Assembly (NCBI RefSeq): GCF_028748185.1
Contig: NZ_CP118164.1
Location: 3,403,814 to 3,435,813, forward strand
Direction of reading: 5' to 3'
Origin: Bremerella sp. P1
GTDB lineage: Bacteria > Planctomycetota > Planctomycetia > Pirellulales > Pirellulaceae
DNA length: 32,000 nt
The notes under the pieces were generated by a model. It was not told the DNA's origin and searched no databases. It saw only the letters and a program-made list of their open reading frames with translations. Positions 15,125 through 29,542 of this stretch are shown here, in pieces. Position 1 is the first letter of the stretch. The number at the start of each line of letters is the position of its first letter. Position numbers and translations under genes: made by a program.

Positions 15125-16639
15125 ATGGATTATGCGTCGATTCTGGCTCGTTACATCGGCAGGGAAGTTTATGTATCGACATTTGGCCACGTTCGCTTAC
15201 GTGGAGAATTGGTCGCAGTTTACGAAGACTGCGTCCGTCTAATTAATGCCTCGACTTCGCAAGAGTCTGAGGATGCCCCTTGGTCTAGTTCGGTGACGGA
15301 CTTTGGTGATGATGGACCCCAAACGGACGGCTCGGAAGCCCTGGTCCACTTTCATCACATTGTCGCGATCCGCTGTGCGGATGACGAATTGCTAGATGTT
15401 CCGGTGCTGCCGGAATTCAGTGCAGAGTCGTCTGAACCGATGGTCGAGAATGACACCACCACAGCCCAAGGGAGCACGCAGGAACCTTGGGAAGCGTTCC
15501 TCGAAGTGGATCGTTTAACCCTGGAATTGGGGCAAAAACTGGTCAAACTCGTGCATCCCGAGTCAACGGACATCATGCAGCGGACCTCTGCGATTCGCTG
15601 TCATTTGGCCGATTCGTTGGGGATGGTGATTCCGAGATTGCGCCTGCGTGATTCGCTTGATTTAGGGGATCAGGAATACCGAATCCTCATCGATCAATAC
15701 GAGGTCGCTCGCGGCCGACTGGGCCCTGGACAGTATCTGGCCCTCGACATGGGAACCTCCAGCGGAACGTTGCAAGGCGTCCGCGGGATCGATCCTACGT
15801 TTGGTGGACCAGGTATCTGGATCAAGTCCGATCAGCAGCAAGAGGCCGAGCAACTTGGCTATCTGGTTATCGATCCTTCGATGCTGGTGATTACGCATCT
15901 GCAGGAAACCTTGCGGCGACATGCCCACGAGATTCTGACGCTGGGCGACGTTCGTGAAATGCTCGAACGGCTGCGGGATCGCTCGCCGGGCGAGTTCGAC
16001 GAGATTCGCTCGAGCCCGATGACAGTGTCCATGTTGCACGCAGTTTTACGGCGATTATTAGAAGAAGGGGAGTCGATCAAGAACTTCTCGCGAATCGTCG
16101 AGATTCTGGCCCTGCACGGACACCGCAATCAAGACATTGAATCGCTGGTCGCGATGGTCCGCGTCCGACTCGGACGACAGTTAGTCCAGCGCTATATCGA
16201 TTCGGATGGGAAAGTCCATGCGATCGGTCTCGACCGAGAGTTGGAAGCTCCCCTACTGCAGATGAGCGACGAAGACGCTGGTCGGCACGTACGCGGCTGG
16301 ATGGAACGTCTTGTCGACGTATTGCGTGAAGCGTTCAATCGGCTCGACGAACAACAGCGACCGGTCGCGGTTATCGTTTCGTCCGATCTGCGGAATCGCT
16401 TGTGGCAAATCCTTTCGCCTCACTTCCCGCAGGTTACTGTCCTGAGCCTGGCGGAGATTCCGCGGGGGACCGACATCTACTGGCAGGTGATCATTTCGCC
16501 GGAAGAGGTCGGAGCCTTGGAAACGGCCGTCAAACGCCCACAGCACCCGGCGGTCGCGAAGGACACCACCTATCGTCCGAGCAAGAGCAAGATGTCCGAG
16601 CACATGGCGGAAGAATTGCCCCCGCGTCGGCCACGTTAA
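15125..16639 (+). CDS. Soluble FlhA/SctV (FHIPEP) cytoplasmic-domain homologue with Sm-like N-terminal domain; lacks the transmembrane export-gate domain
   Basis: Residues from about 130 to 480 are collinear with FlhA-C as I recall it. Matching segments are IRCHLADSLGMVIPRLRLRDSLDLGDQEYRILIDQYEVARG, IDPTFGGPGIWI, VIDPSMLVITHL, LHAVLRRLLEEGESIKNFSRIVEIL, VRVRLGRQL and PQVTVLSLAEIP. Residues 1-84 have an Sm-like strand pattern. The protein contains no hydrophobic helix. Confidence 0.75.
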   Translation: MDYASILARYIGREVYVSTFGHVRLRGELVAVYEDCVRLINASTSQESEDAPWSSSVTDFGDDGPQTDGSEALVHFHHIVAIRCADDELLDVPVLPEFSAESSEPMVENDTTTAQGSTQEPWEAFLEVDRLTLELGQKLVKLVHPESTDIMQRTSAIRCHLADSLGMVIPRLRLRDSLDLGDQEYRILIDQYEVARGRLGPGQYLALDMGTSSGTLQGVRGIDPTFGGPGIWIKSDQQQEAEQLGYLVIDPSMLVITHLQETLRRHAHEILTLGDVREMLERLRDRSPGEFDEIRSSPMTVSMLHAVLRRLLEEGESIKNFSRIVEILALHGHRNQDIESLVAMVRVRLGRQLVQRYIDSDGKVHAIGLDRELEAPLLQMSDEDAGRHVRGWMERLVDVLREAFNRLDEQQRPVAVIVSSDLRNRLWQILSPHFPQVTVLSLAEIPRGTDIYWQVIISPEEVGALETAVKRPQHPAVAKDTTYRPSKSKMSEHMAEELPPRRPR

Positions 16640-23559: not shown

Positions 23560-23673
23560 TGGTCGCGAACCGCTCGTTGTCGATCTGGGGCCAGGGGAAT
23601 AAAATAACCAAAGTATGTGAAAAATAGGCGGCGAGCGAATTCGTCGTTTTCCCCCCAACAGAATCACAAGTTT

Positions 23674-24921
23674 ATGGCTACTTTCGACGTGGAATCGCAA
23701 TTGGATGTCGAACGCATCCGGGCCGATTTCCCCATTCTCCACCAGGTTGACGAAGAACAGAATCCCCTTGTTTACCTCGACAATGGTGCGAGTAGCCAGC
23801 GCCCGAAGTCGGTGATCGATTGCCTAAGTAACGTCTACGAAAAGCATTACGCCAATGTGCATCGTGGTGCCCATCGACTTAGTGGCGAGTCGACCGATCT
23901 ATTTGAAGAGGCCCGGCGTGCCGTTCAGCGGTTCATCGGTGCGTCTTCCGAGAATGAGGTGATCTTCACCAGCGGAACCACCATGGGCATCAACCTGGTG
24001 GCGCGCAGCTGGGGGGACGCCAACGTCACCGCTGGCGACGAGATTCTGCTGACCGAGATGGAACATCACTCCAATCTCGTGCCGTGGCATCAACTTGCGG
24101 AGCGAACCGGGGCCACGATTCGTGCGATTCCGGTCACCGTGGATGGGCAGTTGGATCTCAATGCACTTCCCGCCCGTCTCTCTGAGCGAACCAAGATTGT
24201 CGCCTTTGCGGCCGTTTCCAATGTGCTGGGGACGATCAACCCGGTGCGCGAGATTACCGAGGCAGCCCATGCGGTGGGGGCCAAGGTATTGGTCGACGCG
24301 GCCCAGTCGGTGCCGCACGAAGCGATCGATGTCGTTGGCTGGGATGCCGATTTCGTGGCTTTCAGCGGTCACAAAATGTTAGGGCCATCTGGCGTGGGGG
24401 TACTTTACGGCAAACAGTCGCTATTGGAAGAGATGCCACCGTTTTTGGGTGGCGGCAGCATGATCGATGTGGTCGAGATTGATCGCTTCACGCCTGCGAT
24501 GTTGCCAGCCAAGTTTGAAGCCGGTACGCCCCCAATCGCCGATGCGATTGCCATGAAACCGGCGATCGAATACCTGGAACAAGTTTGTTTGGCTCGTATC
24601 CTGCAACACGAACAATCGCTGGCCGCATACGCTCACGAGCTATTGGCCGATGTGCCGGGCCTGAAGATCTTAGGCCCGGATGTCAGTAAGAAGGCCGGCA
24701 TTGTCAGCTTTGTCATCGATGGCCTGGCCGCGAGTGACATCGCGACGTTTCTGGATGGACGCGGGATTGCCGTTCGCGAGGGGCATCATTGCACCCTGCC
24801 GCTGCATAAGAAGCTGGGAATCAGCGCGAGCGTGCGAGCCAGTTTCTATCTGTACAACACGCGGGAAGAGGTCGAAAAGCTGGCGGATGCTGTACGGACG
24901 ACGGTCGAGTTTTTCGGTTAA
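23674..24921 (+). CDS. sufS: Cysteine desulfurase, SufS/CsdA type (class V aminotransferase, group II)
   Basis: Family segments are RADFPIL, VYLDNGASSQRP, YANVHRGAHRLS, TEMEHHSN, the PLP-lysine segment AFSGHKMLGPSGVGVLYG, and the active-site Cys region REGHHCTLPL...RASFYLYNT. I prefer the ATG at 23674 over the upstream track start. Confidence 0.9.
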   Translation: MATFDVESQLDVERIRADFPILHQVDEEQNPLVYLDNGASSQRPKSVIDCLSNVYEKHYANVHRGAHRLSGESTDLFEEARRAVQRFIGASSENEVIFTSGTTMGINLVARSWGDANVTAGDEILLTEMEHHSNLVPWHQLAERTGATIRAIPVTVDGQLDLNALPARLSERTKIVAFAAVSNVLGTINPVREITEAAHAVGAKVLVDAAQSVPHEAIDVVGWDADFVAFSGHKMLGPSGVGVLYGKQSLLEEMPPFLGGGSMIDVVEIDRFTPAMLPAKFEAGTPPIADAIAMKPAIEYLEQVCLARILQHEQSLAAYAHELLADVPGLKILGPDVSKKAGIVSFVIDGLAASDIATFLDGRGIAVREGHHCTLPLHKKLGISASVRASFYLYNTREEVEKLADAVRTTVEFFG

Positions 24922-25020
24922 ACCGGATCGAAGATTACCAGACGCGGCATCCTAAATTCGCTAGACTGGTCGTTAGGCACGTTCAACATCTCGCTTCTTT
25001 TCGGACAGGAATTCAGGCAA

Positions 25021-25473
25021 ATGTCTCAAAAAGATTACACCCGACGCGACTTTCACAAGCTTTCCGCTGCTGCCCTGAGTGGGATGATGGCGGCCGGCAC
25101 GATCGGTTGTGGTGCGAAGCCCGATGCTACCGGTAACGGCGATGCTTCGCCCGAAGGCGAAGGCACTTCCACCGTCGCCAAGCATGCTTGTCGCGGATTG
25201 AACGAATGCAAAGGCCAAGGCGCCAAGGGCACCAACGAATGTGCTGGTGCCGGAGCGTGTGCGACCGTCGAACATCACGTATGTGGTGGCCACAACGAGT
25301 GCAAAGGCCAAGGCGGCTGCGGTAAGACGCCGGGGGCCAATGATTGCAAAGGGCAAGGTGGCTGCCATGTCCCGATGAGCGGCGGCATGTGGACCAAGGC
25401 CCGCGAGCTGTTCGAAGAGCAGATGAAAGAAAAGGGCCTCGAACTGAAGCCTGCTCCGGAACCGGCTGCCTAA
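25021..25473 (+). CDS. Cys-rich exported precursor-like protein (bufferin/BufA-like) with Tat-type signal and possible lipobox
   Basis: T7-R-R-D-F-H-K13 matches the Tat consensus S/T-R-R-x-F-L-K. A hydrophobic region follows, then I-G-C30. The core (aa 57-115) holds 9 Cys, partly in four decapeptide units of the form x-N-[ED]-C-[KA]-G-[QA]-G-[GA]-[CK]. The gene sits 34 nt upstream of a DUF692 gene. Confidence 0.75.
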   Translation: MSQKDYTRRDFHKLSAAALSGMMAAGTIGCGAKPDATGNGDASPEGEGTSTVAKHACRGLNECKGQGAKGTNECAGAGACATVEHHVCGGHNECKGQGGCGKTPGANDCKGQGGCHVPMSGGMWTKARELFEEQMKEKGLELKPAPEPAA

Positions 25474-25506
25474 GACACCGCTCGCCCAAGACTCTGAGTA
25501 GCGATT

Positions 25507-26418
25507 ATGCCTCAGCCACGGCTTGGCCACGAAAACCTGGGACTGGGGGTCGGACTGCGCGCCCCTCATTTCTCTTACATACTTGAGCACTGGCCGAAGG
25601 TCGACTGGTTCGAGATCATCTCGGAGAATTACATCGACTCGCAGGGACGCCCTCGGTATGTCCTTGATCAAATCGCCGAACGTTATCCGGTGGTGATGCA
25701 CGGCGTATCGCTCTCGATCGGCAGCACCGATCCGCTCGACTTCGATTATCTTGCCAAACTGAAGTCGCTATCGCAGGCGATTGGTGCCCGATGGATCTCG
25801 GATCATGTCTGTTGGACCGGCGTGTCCGGGCAGAATACGCACGATCTGTTACCAATTCCGTACAACGAAGAGTCGCTCAAGCACGTTGCCCAGCGGGTAC
25901 GCCAGGTGCAAGAGTTCCTTGAGCGTCCGCTGATCCTGGAAGATCCCAGCAGCTATGTCACCTTCGCCGCGTCAACGATGAGCGAGTGGGAATTCTTAAC
26001 GGCTTTGACCGAAGAGACTGGCTGCGGGCTGCTGCTCGATGTGAATAACGTTTATGTTTCGGCCGTGAATCACGACTTTGATCCGGTCGAGTACATCGAG
26101 AATCTTCCGTCGGAGAGCATCGTTCAGTTTCACCTGGCGGGGCATACCAACATGGGTGACTACTGCATCGACACACACGACGGCCACGTGATCGATCCCG
26201 TGTGGAAGCTGTATCGCCTGACTCACGAGCGAACTGGAGGCGTATCGACGTTGTTGGAATGGGATGCCAACATTCCCGACTTTCCGACGCTGCATGCCGA
26301 GGTTCTCAAGGCGAAGCGGTTTATCCAAGGGGAAACGATTACCGTCGATGAACCTGTCGGCAACGGCCACACGGCTGTTCCGCACCCGGCGCATCGTATC
26401 GAGCACGAAGTGAGCTAG
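25507..26418 (+). CDS. DUF692 family protein (MNIO / MbnB-like / BufB-like, TIM-barrel iron enzyme)
   Basis: The product is collinear end to end with the DUF692/UPF0276 pattern: [87 protein letters not shown], and TLLEWD. Confidence 0.9.
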
Positions 26419-26422
26419 ATCG

Positions 26423-27325
26423 ATGACCGACAGTAAACAGAATTTGCACGACTTGCCGGTGCTTCAAAAGTGGATGCAGTCGGTGATCACTCATGTGGAC
26501 GGCGTGGTGGAAGGAATCCATTCGCCGGAGGCCCAGCAGCAGATCCCGGTAGACGCGTCCCAGATCGAGTCGGTCGTCACGCCCAGTCAGCGACGCACCA
26601 GCACCGAGCGACTGGAAGTGTACGCCCACGCTTACTATGCCAGGTTGGTCGAATGTTTGAAGTCGATCTATCCCCTGTTTGCCAAGACGGTTGGGGATGA
26701 ACTATTCGATCAGTTCGCGATTGCCTACTTGCAACAGCATCCGTCACGATCTTACACGCTGAATCGGCTGGGAGATCAGTTTCCCGATTTCCTGGAAGAG
26801 ACGAGCCCGACCCGCGGAACCGATCAGCTGGGATTCGAGGACTTCCTGGTCGAGTTGGCCGTTGCGGAACGCACCATTGATGCGATCTTCGACGGGCCTG
26901 GTGTCGAGCAGACGGACGTGCTCTCGCCGTCGGAGTTGGAAGGCATCTCGCCCGATCAGTTTGCCGAGGCTACGTTCCAGATGGTGCCCTGTCTGCGGCT
27001 GCACTCGTTTGCTTTCCCGGTGAGTGACTTCATCACCGCGATCAAGCAAGATCCCCAAGCTGATATGCCAGAAGCTTCACCCAGTTGGTTGGCTTTAACG
27101 CGGAGGGACTACGTCGTACGGAGGGTGCCACTTTCGCGCTGGCAGTATCATCTGCTGGTGCGGCTTGCCGAGGGGCAGAGTGTTTCCCAGGCGATCGCAG
27201 GAGCGGTCGTCGAAGTCGTTCCGTCAGAAGATATTACGGAATTGCTAGCGGCTGCTTTCCAGAAATTCACCAGCGAGCAGTTCTTTCTGGCAATTGAAGT
27301 CCCTTCGGAGCGAAGAGATGGATAG
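26423..27325 (+). CDS. DUF2063 family protein (MbnC/BufC-like partner of DUF692 enzymes)
   Basis: The start is 4 nt after the DUF692 stop. Family segments are LQKWMQSVITH, RLEVYAHAYYARLVECLKSIYPLFAKTVGDELFDQFAIAYLQQHPSRSYTLNRLGDQFPDFL, and LVELAVAERT. These fit the DUF2063 N-terminal pattern. Confidence 0.8.
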   Translation: MTDSKQNLHDLPVLQKWMQSVITHVDGVVEGIHSPEAQQQIPVDASQIESVVTPSQRRTSTERLEVYAHAYYARLVECLKSIYPLFAKTVGDELFDQFAIAYLQQHPSRSYTLNRLGDQFPDFLEETSPTRGTDQLGFEDFLVELAVAERTIDAIFDGPGVEQTDVLSPSELEGISPDQFAEATFQMVPCLRLHSFAFPVSDFITAIKQDPQADMPEASPSWLALTRRDYVVRRVPLSRWQYHLLVRLAEGQSVSQAIAGAVVEVVPSEDITELLAAAFQKFTSEQFFLAIEVPSERRDG

Positions 27326-27580
27326 GCGATTCATTGCCCTTTGCCAGTGATCTTCACCAACGCATAAACGTTCCCCTCCCGGATCCCGAGAATGGGTAAA
27401 TCTTATGTAAGAAGCGAGGAAATGGAGGGGGAATGGGGTGCACTGTGGCTTGTGATCGGCCCAAGAGCCCCTACAATCAATGAGTTACTTTGGGGTTCTG
27501 ATTCTAGAGCTCCGTGAATTGGCAGGGTTACCCATCCGGTTTCCCCCATCCTTGCCTGATCTAGTTCTTTGAGGGCCGCA

Positions 27581-28780
27581 ATGGCATTGGTTAGCTGGGT
27601 TCGAGGTCGTGTTTTTAACTTCGTTCACCGTAACAACTTAGTGTACAACACGTGCTGGGAAGACCCCCGTTTGGACCGGGTCGCCCTGGAGATTCAACCT
27701 CACCACAATGTGATGGTCATCACGTCGGCAGGTTGCAACGCGCTAGACTACGTTCTGGCCGGCGCAAACCACGTTTATGCCGTCGACATGAATCCACGGC
27801 AAAACGCCCTGTTGGATCTCAAGAAGGCGGCCATCCAGAACCTGGAGTATGAAGACTTCTTCTCCATGTTCGGCAAAGGGCAGCTGCTCGACTTCAAGGA
27901 TACGTACAAGTCGCAGCTGCGTGGCTCGCTGCCGGAATGGTCTCGCAGCTATTGGGATCGGAAGATCAAGTACTTCCGCCCTCGCAAGAAACGCAGCTTC
28001 TATTTTCGCGGTACGTCCGGTGCGTTCGCCAAGGTGGTGAACATGTACGTCGAGAACGTCTTGCGGATGCGACCGCTGGTTCTCGACTTGCTCGATGCGA
28101 AGAACCTGGACGAGCAGAAAGAGATCTTTGAGGTCATCGACCGAAAGTTGTGGACCGGGCCGCTCAAGTTTGCCATGAGCCGCGACACGACCTGGAGCCT
28201 GGTCGGTGTGCCACGAGCCCAGCGCGAGCACTTGGAGAAGCAATACTCCAACGGCATCGTCGACTTCGTGCAGGACAACATGCGAGCCGTCTTCGCCGAG
28301 TTGCCAATCCAGGACAACTACTTCTGGCGCGTCTACGTCACCGGCCAGTACACCGAACAGTGTTGCCCCGAGTACCTCAAGCCTGAAAACTTCCAGAAGT
28401 TGAAGGACGGATTGGTACATAAGGTCAGCACGCATACCGACTCGGTACAGCACTTCCTCGAGAAGCACGACGGGCATCCAATTCATCGCCTGGTGCTGTT
28501 GGATCATCAAGACTGGCTGACCGACAAGCTCTACTTTGCCTTGGAAAACGAATGGCAGGCCATCGCCAACCGGATGGAAGGGGAAGAAGATGCCCGCATC
28601 ATCTGGCGCACCGGCGGCTTGAACACGGACTTCATCGACGAAGTCGAGATCACTCATAACGGTCAAAAGAAGCAGGTTGGCGAACTGTTGACCTACAACC
28701 AGCCACTGGCCGACGAGCTTCACGTCAAGGATCGCGTGCATACCTACGGGGCGTTCCGAATCGCGGACATCGCTGCCTAA
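27581..28780 (+). CDS. btaA: DUF3419 / BtaA-like S-adenosylmethionine:diacylglycerol 3-amino-3-carboxypropyl transferase
   Basis: The segment NTCWEDPRLDRVALEIQPHHNVMVITSAGCNALDYVLAGANHVYAVDMNPRQNALLDLKKAAI is the DUF3419 signature. A BtaB-like methyltransferase gene follows after 27 nt. I prefer the ATG at 27581 over the TTG at 27569. Confidence 0.75.
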   Translation: MALVSWVRGRVFNFVHRNNLVYNTCWEDPRLDRVALEIQPHHNVMVITSAGCNALDYVLAGANHVYAVDMNPRQNALLDLKKAAIQNLEYEDFFSMFGKGQLLDFKDTYKSQLRGSLPEWSRSYWDRKIKYFRPRKKRSFYFRGTSGAFAKVVNMYVENVLRMRPLVLDLLDAKNLDEQKEIFEVIDRKLWTGPLKFAMSRDTTWSLVGVPRAQREHLEKQYSNGIVDFVQDNMRAVFAELPIQDNYFWRVYVTGQYTEQCCPEYLKPENFQKLKDGLVHKVSTHTDSVQHFLEKHDGHPIHRLVLLDHQDWLTDKLYFALENEWQAIANRMEGEEDARIIWRTGGLNTDFIDEVEITHNGQKKQVGELLTYNQPLADELHVKDRVHTYGAFRIADIAA

Positions 28781-28807
28781 GTCACGCCAATCTTTGAGGA
28801 GCATCGG

Positions 28808-29542
28808 ATGAGTCTGGCTTCGGACCTGAAAGTCTTGTATCACCTTGCCGTGAAGCCGGTGAAGGGTGACAACCACGCCGAGCGACTGGACAGCTTTTAC
28901 AGCGGTCAGGCAGGCGCGTACGACGACTTTCGCAAACGCCTGCTCAAAGGGCGGGAAGAGATGTACCGCTCGATCGATCCGCCACAAGATGCCGTGTGGG
29001 TCGACATGGGAGGTGGAACTGGCTCGAATCTCGAGTTCATTTCCGATCGCATTGGCCAGCTGAAGCAGGGCTATGTGGTCGATCTGGCATCGTCTCTCTT
29101 GAAAGTCTGTGATGACCGCATCCAGGAACGCGGTTGGAACAATGTGAAGACGGTCGAAGCGGACGCCACGACCTGGACGCCTGACGAAGGGTACGCCGAC
29201 GTCGTGACGTTTTCCTACTCGCTGACGATGATTCCGGATTGGTTCGCGGCAATCGACAACGCGCTGCGGATCTTGAAGCCAGGCGGAACGATCGGTGTAG
29301 TCGATTTCTACGTTTCGCGCAAGTTCCCGGATGAGGCTCTCAAGCGACATTCGTGGTTCACGCGAAGTTTCTGGCCGGTCTGGTTCGCGTCAGATAACGT
29401 CTTTCCTTCGCGGGATCACGTCCCCTATTTGCAGCGACACTTTGAAACCACCAAACTAGAAGAGAATCGCGCCAAGGTTCCTTACTTGTTGTGGTTCAAG
29501 ACGCCGTACTACATCTTCACTGGTACGAAACGCGAGTCGTAG
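28808..29542 (+). CDS. btaB: Class I SAM-dependent methyltransferase, BtaB-like (DGHS N-methyltransferase)
   Basis: SAM motif I is [15 protein letters not shown]. Also present are [33 protein letters not shown] and [16 protein letters not shown]. The gene is positioned directly after the btaA-like gene. Confidence 0.7.

Follow-up and report, generated by a model that had tools for sequence, protein, structure and literature searches.

A nine-cysteine bufferin-type precursor family with a predicted twin-arginine and, in most members, lipoprotein presequence in planctomycetes

The window analysed here, the whole 32,000-nucleotide stretch of Bremerella sp. P1 DNA, contains three genes that lie on the + strand in the order precursor, MNIO-family maturase (BufB) and DUF2063 partner (BufC), with 33 nt between the first two and 4 bases between the second and third (Table 1). 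Bufferin operons have been described with the same arrangement, bufA-bufB-bufC (PMC11626156, PMC12452194). The maturase matched the NF050167 MNIO_BufB equivalog with 367.1 bits against a cut-off of 310, and it scored under the respective cut-offs of the HvfB, ApyH, MbnB and ChrH models. The C-terminal domain of BufC gave sub-threshold matches to NGO1945_C (22.5 bits, under 27) and to HvfC NF050145 (58 bits, under 142). The initial annotation, made from the sequence of this stretch, had read the small first gene as a bufferin-type precursor, and the adjoining BufB-type MNIO and DUF2063 genes support that reading. Inspection of the translations revealed a hydrophobic presequence neither in BufB nor in BufC (N-terminus MTDSKQNLHD...), so that any modification of the precursor would take place in the cytoplasm, prior to export. 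The operon is flanked upstream by a SufS-like class-V aminotransferase and downstream by a DUF3419 protein and a methyltransferase, and neither side is conserved as a partner. A scan of positions 24700-27800 for promoters and terminators returned sites no more numerous than in shuffled sequence. An opposite-strand ORF of 242 aa (24973-25701) overlaps the precursor gene; it was taken as a shadow ORF and rejected, given the hundreds of conserved homologues of the + strand product. Homologue clusters of the precursor numbered 432 at E <= 1e-3.

Table 1. Genes of the candidate bufferin operon and features of the precursor, with positions in the window.
Feature	Position	Strand	Basis
bufA-like precursor gene, 150 aa plus stop	25021..25473	+	ORF and translation
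Predicted signal peptide, aa 1-29 (n-region and Ala/Gly-rich h-region)	25021..25107	+	AF2 helix, aa 8-24
Candidate twin-arginine motif T-R-R-D-F-H-K, aa 7-13	25039..25059	+	RR conservation; TIGR01409 at cut-off
Candidate lipobox T-I-G-C, aa 27-30; Cys30 is the predicted lipidation/cleavage site	25099..25110	+	Conserved Cys
Variable low-complexity linker/tether, aa 31-54	25111..25182	+	pLDDT <50
Cys-rich half-domain 1, aa 55-80 (Cys57, 63, 74, 80)	25183..25260	+	Aligns to half-domain 2 and to P0267
Cys-rich half-domain 2, aa 86-115 (Cys88, 94, 100, 109, 115)	25276..25365	+	Aligns to half-domain 1
C-terminal amphipathic helix, aa 123-138	25387..25434	+	AF2 helix, pLDDT 74-80
bufB, MNIO-family maturase, 303 aa	25507..26418	+	No signal peptide; PF05114, 370 bits
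bufC, DUF2063 partner, 300 aa	26423..27325	+	No signal peptide; PF09836, 73.2 bits (cut-off 27.2)

No Pfam family, DUF2282 included, matched the precursor, and its match to the BufA2 model NF050166 was weak (30.7 bits, under the cut-off of 60). Nevertheless, 55 of 56 family members matched this model, none of them more strongly than E = 3.2e-9, and the match stops short of the C-terminal helix. The core is collinear with that of P0267, a Sec-type BufA2-like protein that itself attains the BufA2 cut-off, with 51% identity over 76 aa (E = 2e-19). By these alignments, the precursor belongs to the Buf_6/12Cys superfamily, as a divergent branch with nine Cys and a helical tail. With Bufferin 2 (BufA2; Buf_6/12Cys; NF050166; buf2ABC of C. 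vibrioides) it has in common the A-B-C gene order, the BufB-type MNIO, the DUF2063 partner, the H-x-C...N-x-C-K-G-x-G-G-C modules and a motif in the h-region of the signal peptide. Unlike BufA2, it contains nine core Cys instead of six or 12, adds a conserved C-terminal helix and a long variable linker, and starts with an RR-x-F n-region, where the bufferin papers describe a Sec-type signal. Bufferin 1 (BufA1; DUF2282) is likewise a small Cys-containing protein with a signal peptide, modified by MNIO and DUF2063 proteins (PMC11626156); BufA1, however, has four Cys and belongs to the DUF2282 family that the precursor does not match. Many BufA1 operons also carry genes for DoxX (BufD) and for sigma/anti-sigma factors; the operon in the window has neither. 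Bufferin 1 carries thiooxazoles and binds copper in the periplasm, and in Buf2 each of the four central Cys is lighter by 4 Da (thiooxazole), with a disulphide between the outer pair (PMC11626156).

The translation quoted in the initial annotation for the precursor gene was exact, including HAC at residues 55-57 and HHVC at 85-88, and the 35-aa Cys-free tail that it described was recovered at residues 116-150. Its account of the core, four tandem N-[ED]-C-K-G-Q-G-G-C decapeptides, required revision. Four N-x-C units do exist (LNECKGQGAK, 60-69; TNECAGAGAC, 71-80; HNECKGQGGC, 91-100; ANDCKGQGGC, 106-115) and all fit the looser pattern N-x-C-x-G-x-G-x-[C/K], but the strict pattern occurs only in units 3 and 4, and the units are not arranged head to tail, their starts being 11, 20 and 15 residues apart. 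The true repeat is a duplicated half-domain, the two copies of which are 53% identical (E = 3e-8) and follow the pattern H-x-C-x-G-x-N-x-C-K-G-Q-G, a short spacer, and N-x-C-x-G-x-G-x-C. Invariant positions are H55, C57, G59, N61, C63, N72, C74, G76 and C80 in the first copy, and C88, C94, G99, C100, N107, C109, G113 and C115 in the second. The number of core Cys was exactly nine in all 121 sequences, namely the query and 120 homologues.

Outside the core, 15 to 58 residues separate the lipobox Cys from the first Cys of the core across the family, and the intervening sequence is not conserved; such a variable stretch after Cys30 fits a tether. The C-terminal helix contains an invariant W124, and R128, F131, E132 and M135 are conserved in at least 90% of the sequences. 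AF2 modeling of the full protein (56 sequences; pLDDT 54.5) gave no confident fold for the unmodified core, and modeling of the core alone (141 sequences) reached a pLDDT of 64.8 and a pTM of 0.56; the confident parts were the signal helix and the C-terminal helix only. A Foldseek search of the PDB returned no match (best E = 4.2), nor did a PDB sequence search. Since AF2 yielded no confident core fold, the idea of a protein folded before export receives no support from the models.

To our count, the nine-Cys precursor family comprises at least 542 loci in species-representative genomes, and a search with the core only gave 364 representatives at 50% identity. The hosts are chiefly Planctomycetota (Pirellulales and Planctomycetales), with a few Acidobacteriota, Phycisphaerae, Verrucomicrobiota and others, and the nearest relatives of the precursor, at 86% identity, are in Blastopirellula and Bremerella. 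Across 80 related loci, the only recurrent neighbours were BufB, with a homologue within 6 kb of the precursor in 43 loci, and BufC, with a homologue in 40; neither an exporter nor a protease is conserved in the neighbourhood. In species-representative genomes, roughly every second family gene is without an MNIO inside 6 kb, and these stand-alone copies have no conserved neighbours apart from local synteny. Such copies would suit an ordinary Cys-rich, metallothionein-like periplasmic lipoprotein that is not a RiPP, whose unmodified thiols bind metal, the neighbouring MNIO having another substrate. We consider this explanation highly improbable, given that the precursor gene is located directly upstream of a BufB scoring above the equivalog cut-off, that BufB and BufC are its sole conserved neighbours, and that stand-alone precursor genes have been reported for true bufferin families (PMC12452194). 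Moreover, a stand-alone copy and an MNIO-linked copy can coexist in one genome, as in the locus pairs L026/L055 and L016/L036.

Members of this family have very probably been counted as Buf2 in the published survey (PMC12452194). Its Table S2 gives, for Planctopirus limnophila, two Buf_6-12Cys genes interleaved with MNIO, DoxX and DUF2063 genes, and the same layout is found in one of our loci (L059), with two members of the nine-Cys family.

We then consider the presequence, in which T7-R8-R9-D10-F11-H12-K13 is followed by a stretch from L14 to G29 and by C30. The heptapeptide had been described as one residue away from the twin-arginine consensus, which is correct: it differs from S/T-R-R-x-F-L-K in one position, having His in place of Leu. 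Conservation of the RR pair had been proposed as a check on this motif, and the pair is kept in 120 of 121 homologues and in 79 of 80 species-level loci. Lys never substitutes for it in 120 sequences; Phe follows two residues after the RR in 115 of the 120, and Leu five residues after it in 116. With conservation of this degree, the motif is no chance occurrence. Throughout the presequence, R9, A18 and G21 are invariant, and R8, F11, L14, A17 and G29 are conserved in at least 90%, giving a family-wide architecture of an R-R-x-F-x-[KR]-L n-region and a weakly hydrophobic Ala/Gly-rich h-region, mostly followed by a lipobox. The +3 position is polar, being His in 66 homologues, Asn in 28 and other polar residues in the rest. 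The TatP pattern RR.[FGAVML][LITMVF] would be satisfied by only about 7% of the members, Thr (8 of 120) being the sole residue listed at +3 that it permits. TIGR01409 matched the precursor with 16.8 bits against a cut-off of 16.7, a margin of 0.1 bit, and matched 10 of 56 family members at E <= 0.01; Pfam TAT_signal gave no match to the precursor even at E <= 10. Taking the conservation together with the polar +3 residue and the marginal HMM matches, we regard it as likely that the presequence is of Tat type. The mean Kyte-Doolittle hydropathy of the h-region of the precursor is 1.34; a comparison with E. coli signal peptides is indicative only, and a control with homologous proteins takes its place.

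For this internal control, which supplies the strongest evidence for a Tat signal, the Sec-type, BufA2-scoring P0267 served as the query, and the 119 relatives closest to it were compared. The n-region contained RR-x-F in 60 of these BufA2-like proteins (e.g. MDRREFTKIMGAVVAGM...), and the other 59 had a short, Lys-rich Sec-type n-region (e.g. MKKTTSTILAAAVSGL...), with a K:R ratio of 108:21. Both classes have the h-region motif L-x-A-A-V-x-G, and its spacing from the RR or KK is equal in the two. Hydropathy, taken as the maximum of a 12-residue Kyte-Doolittle window, is lower in the h-regions of the RR class than in those of the Lys class (2.00 versus 2.27; Mann-Whitney p = 2e-9), and the value for the nine-Cys family is 1.75. 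A less hydrophobic h-region is the classical difference between Tat and Sec signals. The RR-type BufA2-like genes are located directly upstream of MNIO and DUF2063 genes, indicating that they are true bufferin-cluster genes. The predicted Tat-type signal is thus not special to the gene in the window and is widespread in the Buf2 superfamily.

These data bear on the alternative that the precursor is a Sec-exported lipoprotein bufferin, in which RR-x-F...L-x-A-A-x-x-G is an element of a BufC/BufB leader, or the arginines are merely part of a positive n-region, and which crosses SecYEG unfolded, as reported for the C. vibrioides bufferins. Such a protein would account for an h-region conserved far beyond the needs of targeting, with A18 and G21 invariant, and for the marginal Tat HMM support and polar +3 residue. 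BufB-BufC recognition is also said, on preliminary data, to include the signal peptide (PMC12452194). On the other hand, half of the relatives use the common h-region scaffold without RR, which argues against the RR as a mere BufC leader motif, since the Lys-rich n-regions indicate that RR is not needed for recognition of the scaffold. The absence of any Lys in place of RR in 120 sequences and the significantly lower hydrophobicity of the RR-class h-regions likewise speak for Tat targeting. DoxX fusions, which retain the RR motif internally, also count in favour of the Sec alternative; an internal RR motif has precedent, however, in membrane proteins that use both Sec and Tat. One example is the Rieske protein Sco2149 of Streptomyces, where the motif precedes the last transmembrane segment. 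We therefore view Sec export as unlikely, and a Tat-type signal as the preferred reading. The Sec-type relatives have a further implication, namely that thiooxazole chemistry does not require Tat, and we have counted this against the Tat mechanism.

Downstream of the twin-arginine motif, T-I-G-C30 fits the lipobox [LVI][ASTVI][GAS]-C at 15-35 residues from the start, except for the Thr at -3, which is off the strict consensus. Across the family, position -3 is T, L, A, V or M, position -2 is A, I, L or V, and position -1 is nearly always Gly. The check set for this site by the initial annotation was conservation of Cys30, and a Cys is present in 119 of 121 homologues and in 66 of 80 loci; it lies 21-23 residues after the first Arg in 117 of the 119, and is preceded by Gly in 115 of the 119. 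In 13 of the 80 loci the RR is kept, the Cys is absent, and an AxA-type signal-peptidase-I site is found instead (...GASFA/ADDKK, ...GVAQA/AQDKK). Such an exchange between Cys and AxA is expected of a choice of cleavage site, and supports reading T-I-G-C as a lipobox. The aligned sequences indicate that the RR pair is more fixed than the lipobox Cys, and the predicted cleavage type toggles between lipoprotein and soluble protein, at times inside one cluster (L059).

The lipid anchor had been put forward as a departure from the known paradigm, a claim that does not hold: about 16% of Buf2 bufferins are already predicted lipoproteins (PMC12452194), and there is experimental evidence of a lipidated RiPP modified by an MNIO (PMC13056109). 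In those lipidated MNIO RiPPs (DybA/chryseobasin-like), as in the family described here, the presequence of the precursor ends in a lipobox, and the general lipoprotein pathway matures the RiPP (PMC13056109). They differ in being described as Sec/SPII substrates and in their chemistry, the ChrH-type MNIO making a macrocycle and a hydantoin, not thiooxazoles. The claim of novelty for the Tat signal fared differently. It stands with respect to the bufferin literature searched, which names Sec-type signals only, in agreement with the initial annotation, but not with respect to the genes themselves, in view of the 60 RR-x-F proteins among the 119 BufA2-like relatives. Neither Tat nor a twin-arginine motif was mentioned in the bufferin and MNIO literature searched (PMC11626156, PMC12452194, PMC13056109, PMC13097082, PMC12538549), and a broader literature search likewise gave no mention. 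The sole link between RiPPs and Tat that we found is speculation, with failed preliminary attempts, in lanthipeptide phage display (PMC5686179).

A twin-arginine n-region followed by a lipobox is the arrangement of Tat-dependent (Tat/SPII) lipoproteins, to which the precursor would add a polar +3 residue. Such lipoproteins, found in Streptomyces and haloarchaea and exemplified by DmsA of Shewanella, are exported by Tat and then processed by Lgt and LspA; those known to us are enzymes or binding proteins, and we know of no RiPP precursor among them. TatA and TatC of E. coli, used as tblastn queries, gave no match in the window or in 84 related loci (806 kb), an expected outcome for such a small amount of sequence, and the same DNA contained no tat, lgt or lspA gene. 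We therefore infer the machinery from literature at the level of the class: tatC and tatA were present in five of five Planctomycetia/Phycisphaerae genomes surveyed (PMC3827258), and TatA/B, TatC and signal peptidase II have been described in the planctomycete Kuenenia (PMC2881027).

We propose that the gene encodes the precursor (BufA) of a bufferin-type RiPP metallophore that is modified by BufB and BufC, exported by Tat, lipidated and metal-binding, and as a whole we hold this mechanism to be reasonably likely. By analogy with C. vibrioides Buf1 and Buf2, BufB and BufC would convert several of the nine core Cys into 5-thiooxazoles in the cytoplasm. The modified domain would then be exported post-translationally by TatA/TatC, not Sec, and Lgt and LspA would lipidate and cleave the precursor at Cys30. 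The mature product would be a head held at the membrane by a flexible linker (aa 31-54, about 24 residues), and this head, again by analogy, may bind copper or another soft metal in the periplasm.

A variant of Tat export, raised in the initial annotation as metal-loaded export, would have the thiooxazole domain take up Cu(I) in the cytoplasm and leave as a metal-loaded protein, resulting in stoichiometric copper extrusion. The cytoplasmic location of the modification, with BufB and BufC lacking signal peptides, and the family-wide occurrence of a Tat-type signal would be in keeping with this, as Tat usually marks folding or cofactor uptake before export. However, the Sec-type relatives with the same Cys modules must load in the periplasm, two copper proteins that use Tat, CueO and NosZ, probably pass the membrane in the apo form, and Tat is also open to small unstructured proteins. 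Export of a metal-loaded protein is thus quite improbable, and in the mechanism that we prefer, metal would be bound after export, in the periplasm.

The h-region motif L-x-A-A-x-x-G probably doubles as a recognition element for BufB/BufC, because it is conserved and is common to the Sec and Tat classes; the preliminary data on the signal peptide as part of the BufB-BufC recognition sequence (PMC12452194) point in the same direction. Taken further, the presequence might be three-in-one, consisting of a Tat n-region, a leader h-region bound by BufC and a lipobox, with BufC acting as a Tat proofreading chaperone that keeps the signal covered while BufB heterocyclises the Cys modules; this extension is a tentative one, and we think it rather doubtful. 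Its model is the Tat proofreading chaperones (REMPs), such as TorD, DmsD and NapD, in which a cytoplasmic partner binds the signal peptide and delays export until maturation is complete. The comparison is by analogy only: BufC could likewise hold export until maturation, but as a DUF2063 plus RRE-like protein it is unrelated to the REMPs. If the three-in-one reading is true, only finished, folded bufferin would be exported and lipidated, and the repeated change of n-region type, Lys-rich or RR-x-F, over a single conserved h-region in the Buf2 superfamily would represent two solutions of these lineages to premature export.

Bufferins have been presented as a RiPP class that uses the general Sec pathway, and their discoverers point to an unsolved question, namely what keeps the precursor from leaving the cytoplasm before the MNIO there has acted (PMC12452194). 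The relatives described here form a large natural set in which a common signal-peptide scaffold occurs with Tat-type n-regions in some precursors and with Sec-type n-regions in their homologues, making the question of premature export testable. A bufferin-type family with a Tat-type, mostly lipoprotein, presequence is well supported by the alignments and is the new element here, lipidation itself being already known. On sequence evidence, it would correct the stated Sec-only generalisation for bufferins, and if the use of Tat is true, bufferins of this type would be the first natural RiPP class on the Tat route. Some of the homologues have already been named 'twin-arginine translocation signal domain-containing protein' by NCBI, with the bufferin link absent; for these and other members, 'bufferin-type precursor' would be a better annotation than 'hypothetical' or a generic 'Tat signal domain' label.

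The Cys-rich core of the precursor was found fused to a membrane domain in several matches from the homologue search with this core alone (P0149, P0164, P0168, P0169, and P0184), in which a DoxX domain (PF07681; 58.9 bits in P0149) is followed by the precursor-type core and C-terminal helix. The fusions retain the RR-x-F motif at an internal position, directly ahead of the last hydrophobic segment, an arrangement reminiscent of dual Sec/Tat-inserted membrane proteins. A fusion of DoxX with a bufferin-like core is not among the fusions given in the published bufferin survey (PMC12452194).

DoxX-like sequence was also present in a cluster containing two precursor-family genes (L059:3853-7360), one encoding RR and a signal peptidase I site (AVA|AD), and the other RR and a lipobox. 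The two precursors flank a BufB and an ORF that looks DoxX-like by sequence, and a BufC comes after them; this gene order is identical to that given for Planctopirus limnophila in Table S2 of PMC12452194. In the species-representative genomes, approximately half of the precursor-family genes have no MNIO within 6 kb (L004, L005, L009, L012, L020, L022, and L028, among other loci), and in some genomes a linked lipobox copy coexists with an unlinked AxA-type copy (locus pairs L026/L055 and L016/L036).

The core search additionally returned large proteins of 470–714 aa carrying a bufferin-like core at the C-terminus (P0228, P0232, P0235, P0242, P0244, and P0262), and reading through these six sequences revealed no obvious signal peptide. 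A domain scan, carried out on P0228 only, detected a Ferritin-like domain at the N-terminus (PF12902; 120 bits); the word "ferritin" is absent from the published MNIO landscape paper. Smaller matches of 200–250 aa (P0233, P0237, P0245, P0251, P0257, P0260, and P0261), likewise without a signal peptide, have a second Cys-rich tail (...SCGxSGxxxCSFG...) after the core, and may correspond to the "adjamnio-I" group in Table 2 of PMC12452194.

Other genes of the window are listed below. A class-V aminotransferase gene lies upstream of the precursor-family gene in 6 of the 80 related loci compared; local synteny probably accounts for its position next to the precursor gene, and there is no apparent connection with thiooxazole chemistry. 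The DUF3419 and methyltransferase genes, which we take to be similar to BtaA/BtaB-type betaine-lipid synthesis genes, have no conserved place beside the buf genes in other loci. The FHIPEP-matching ORF covers only the C-terminal half of the profile (positions 309–655 of 657); the gene may be truncated, or its start may be wrongly assigned.

Additional genes in the window
Feature	Position	Relation to precursor gene	Profile match
504-aa ORF	15125-16639		FHIPEP (FlhA-type export)
SufS-like class-V aminotransferase	23617-24921	same strand, 99 nt upstream	
DUF3419 protein, then SAM-dependent methyltransferase	27569-29542		DUF3419, 379 bits
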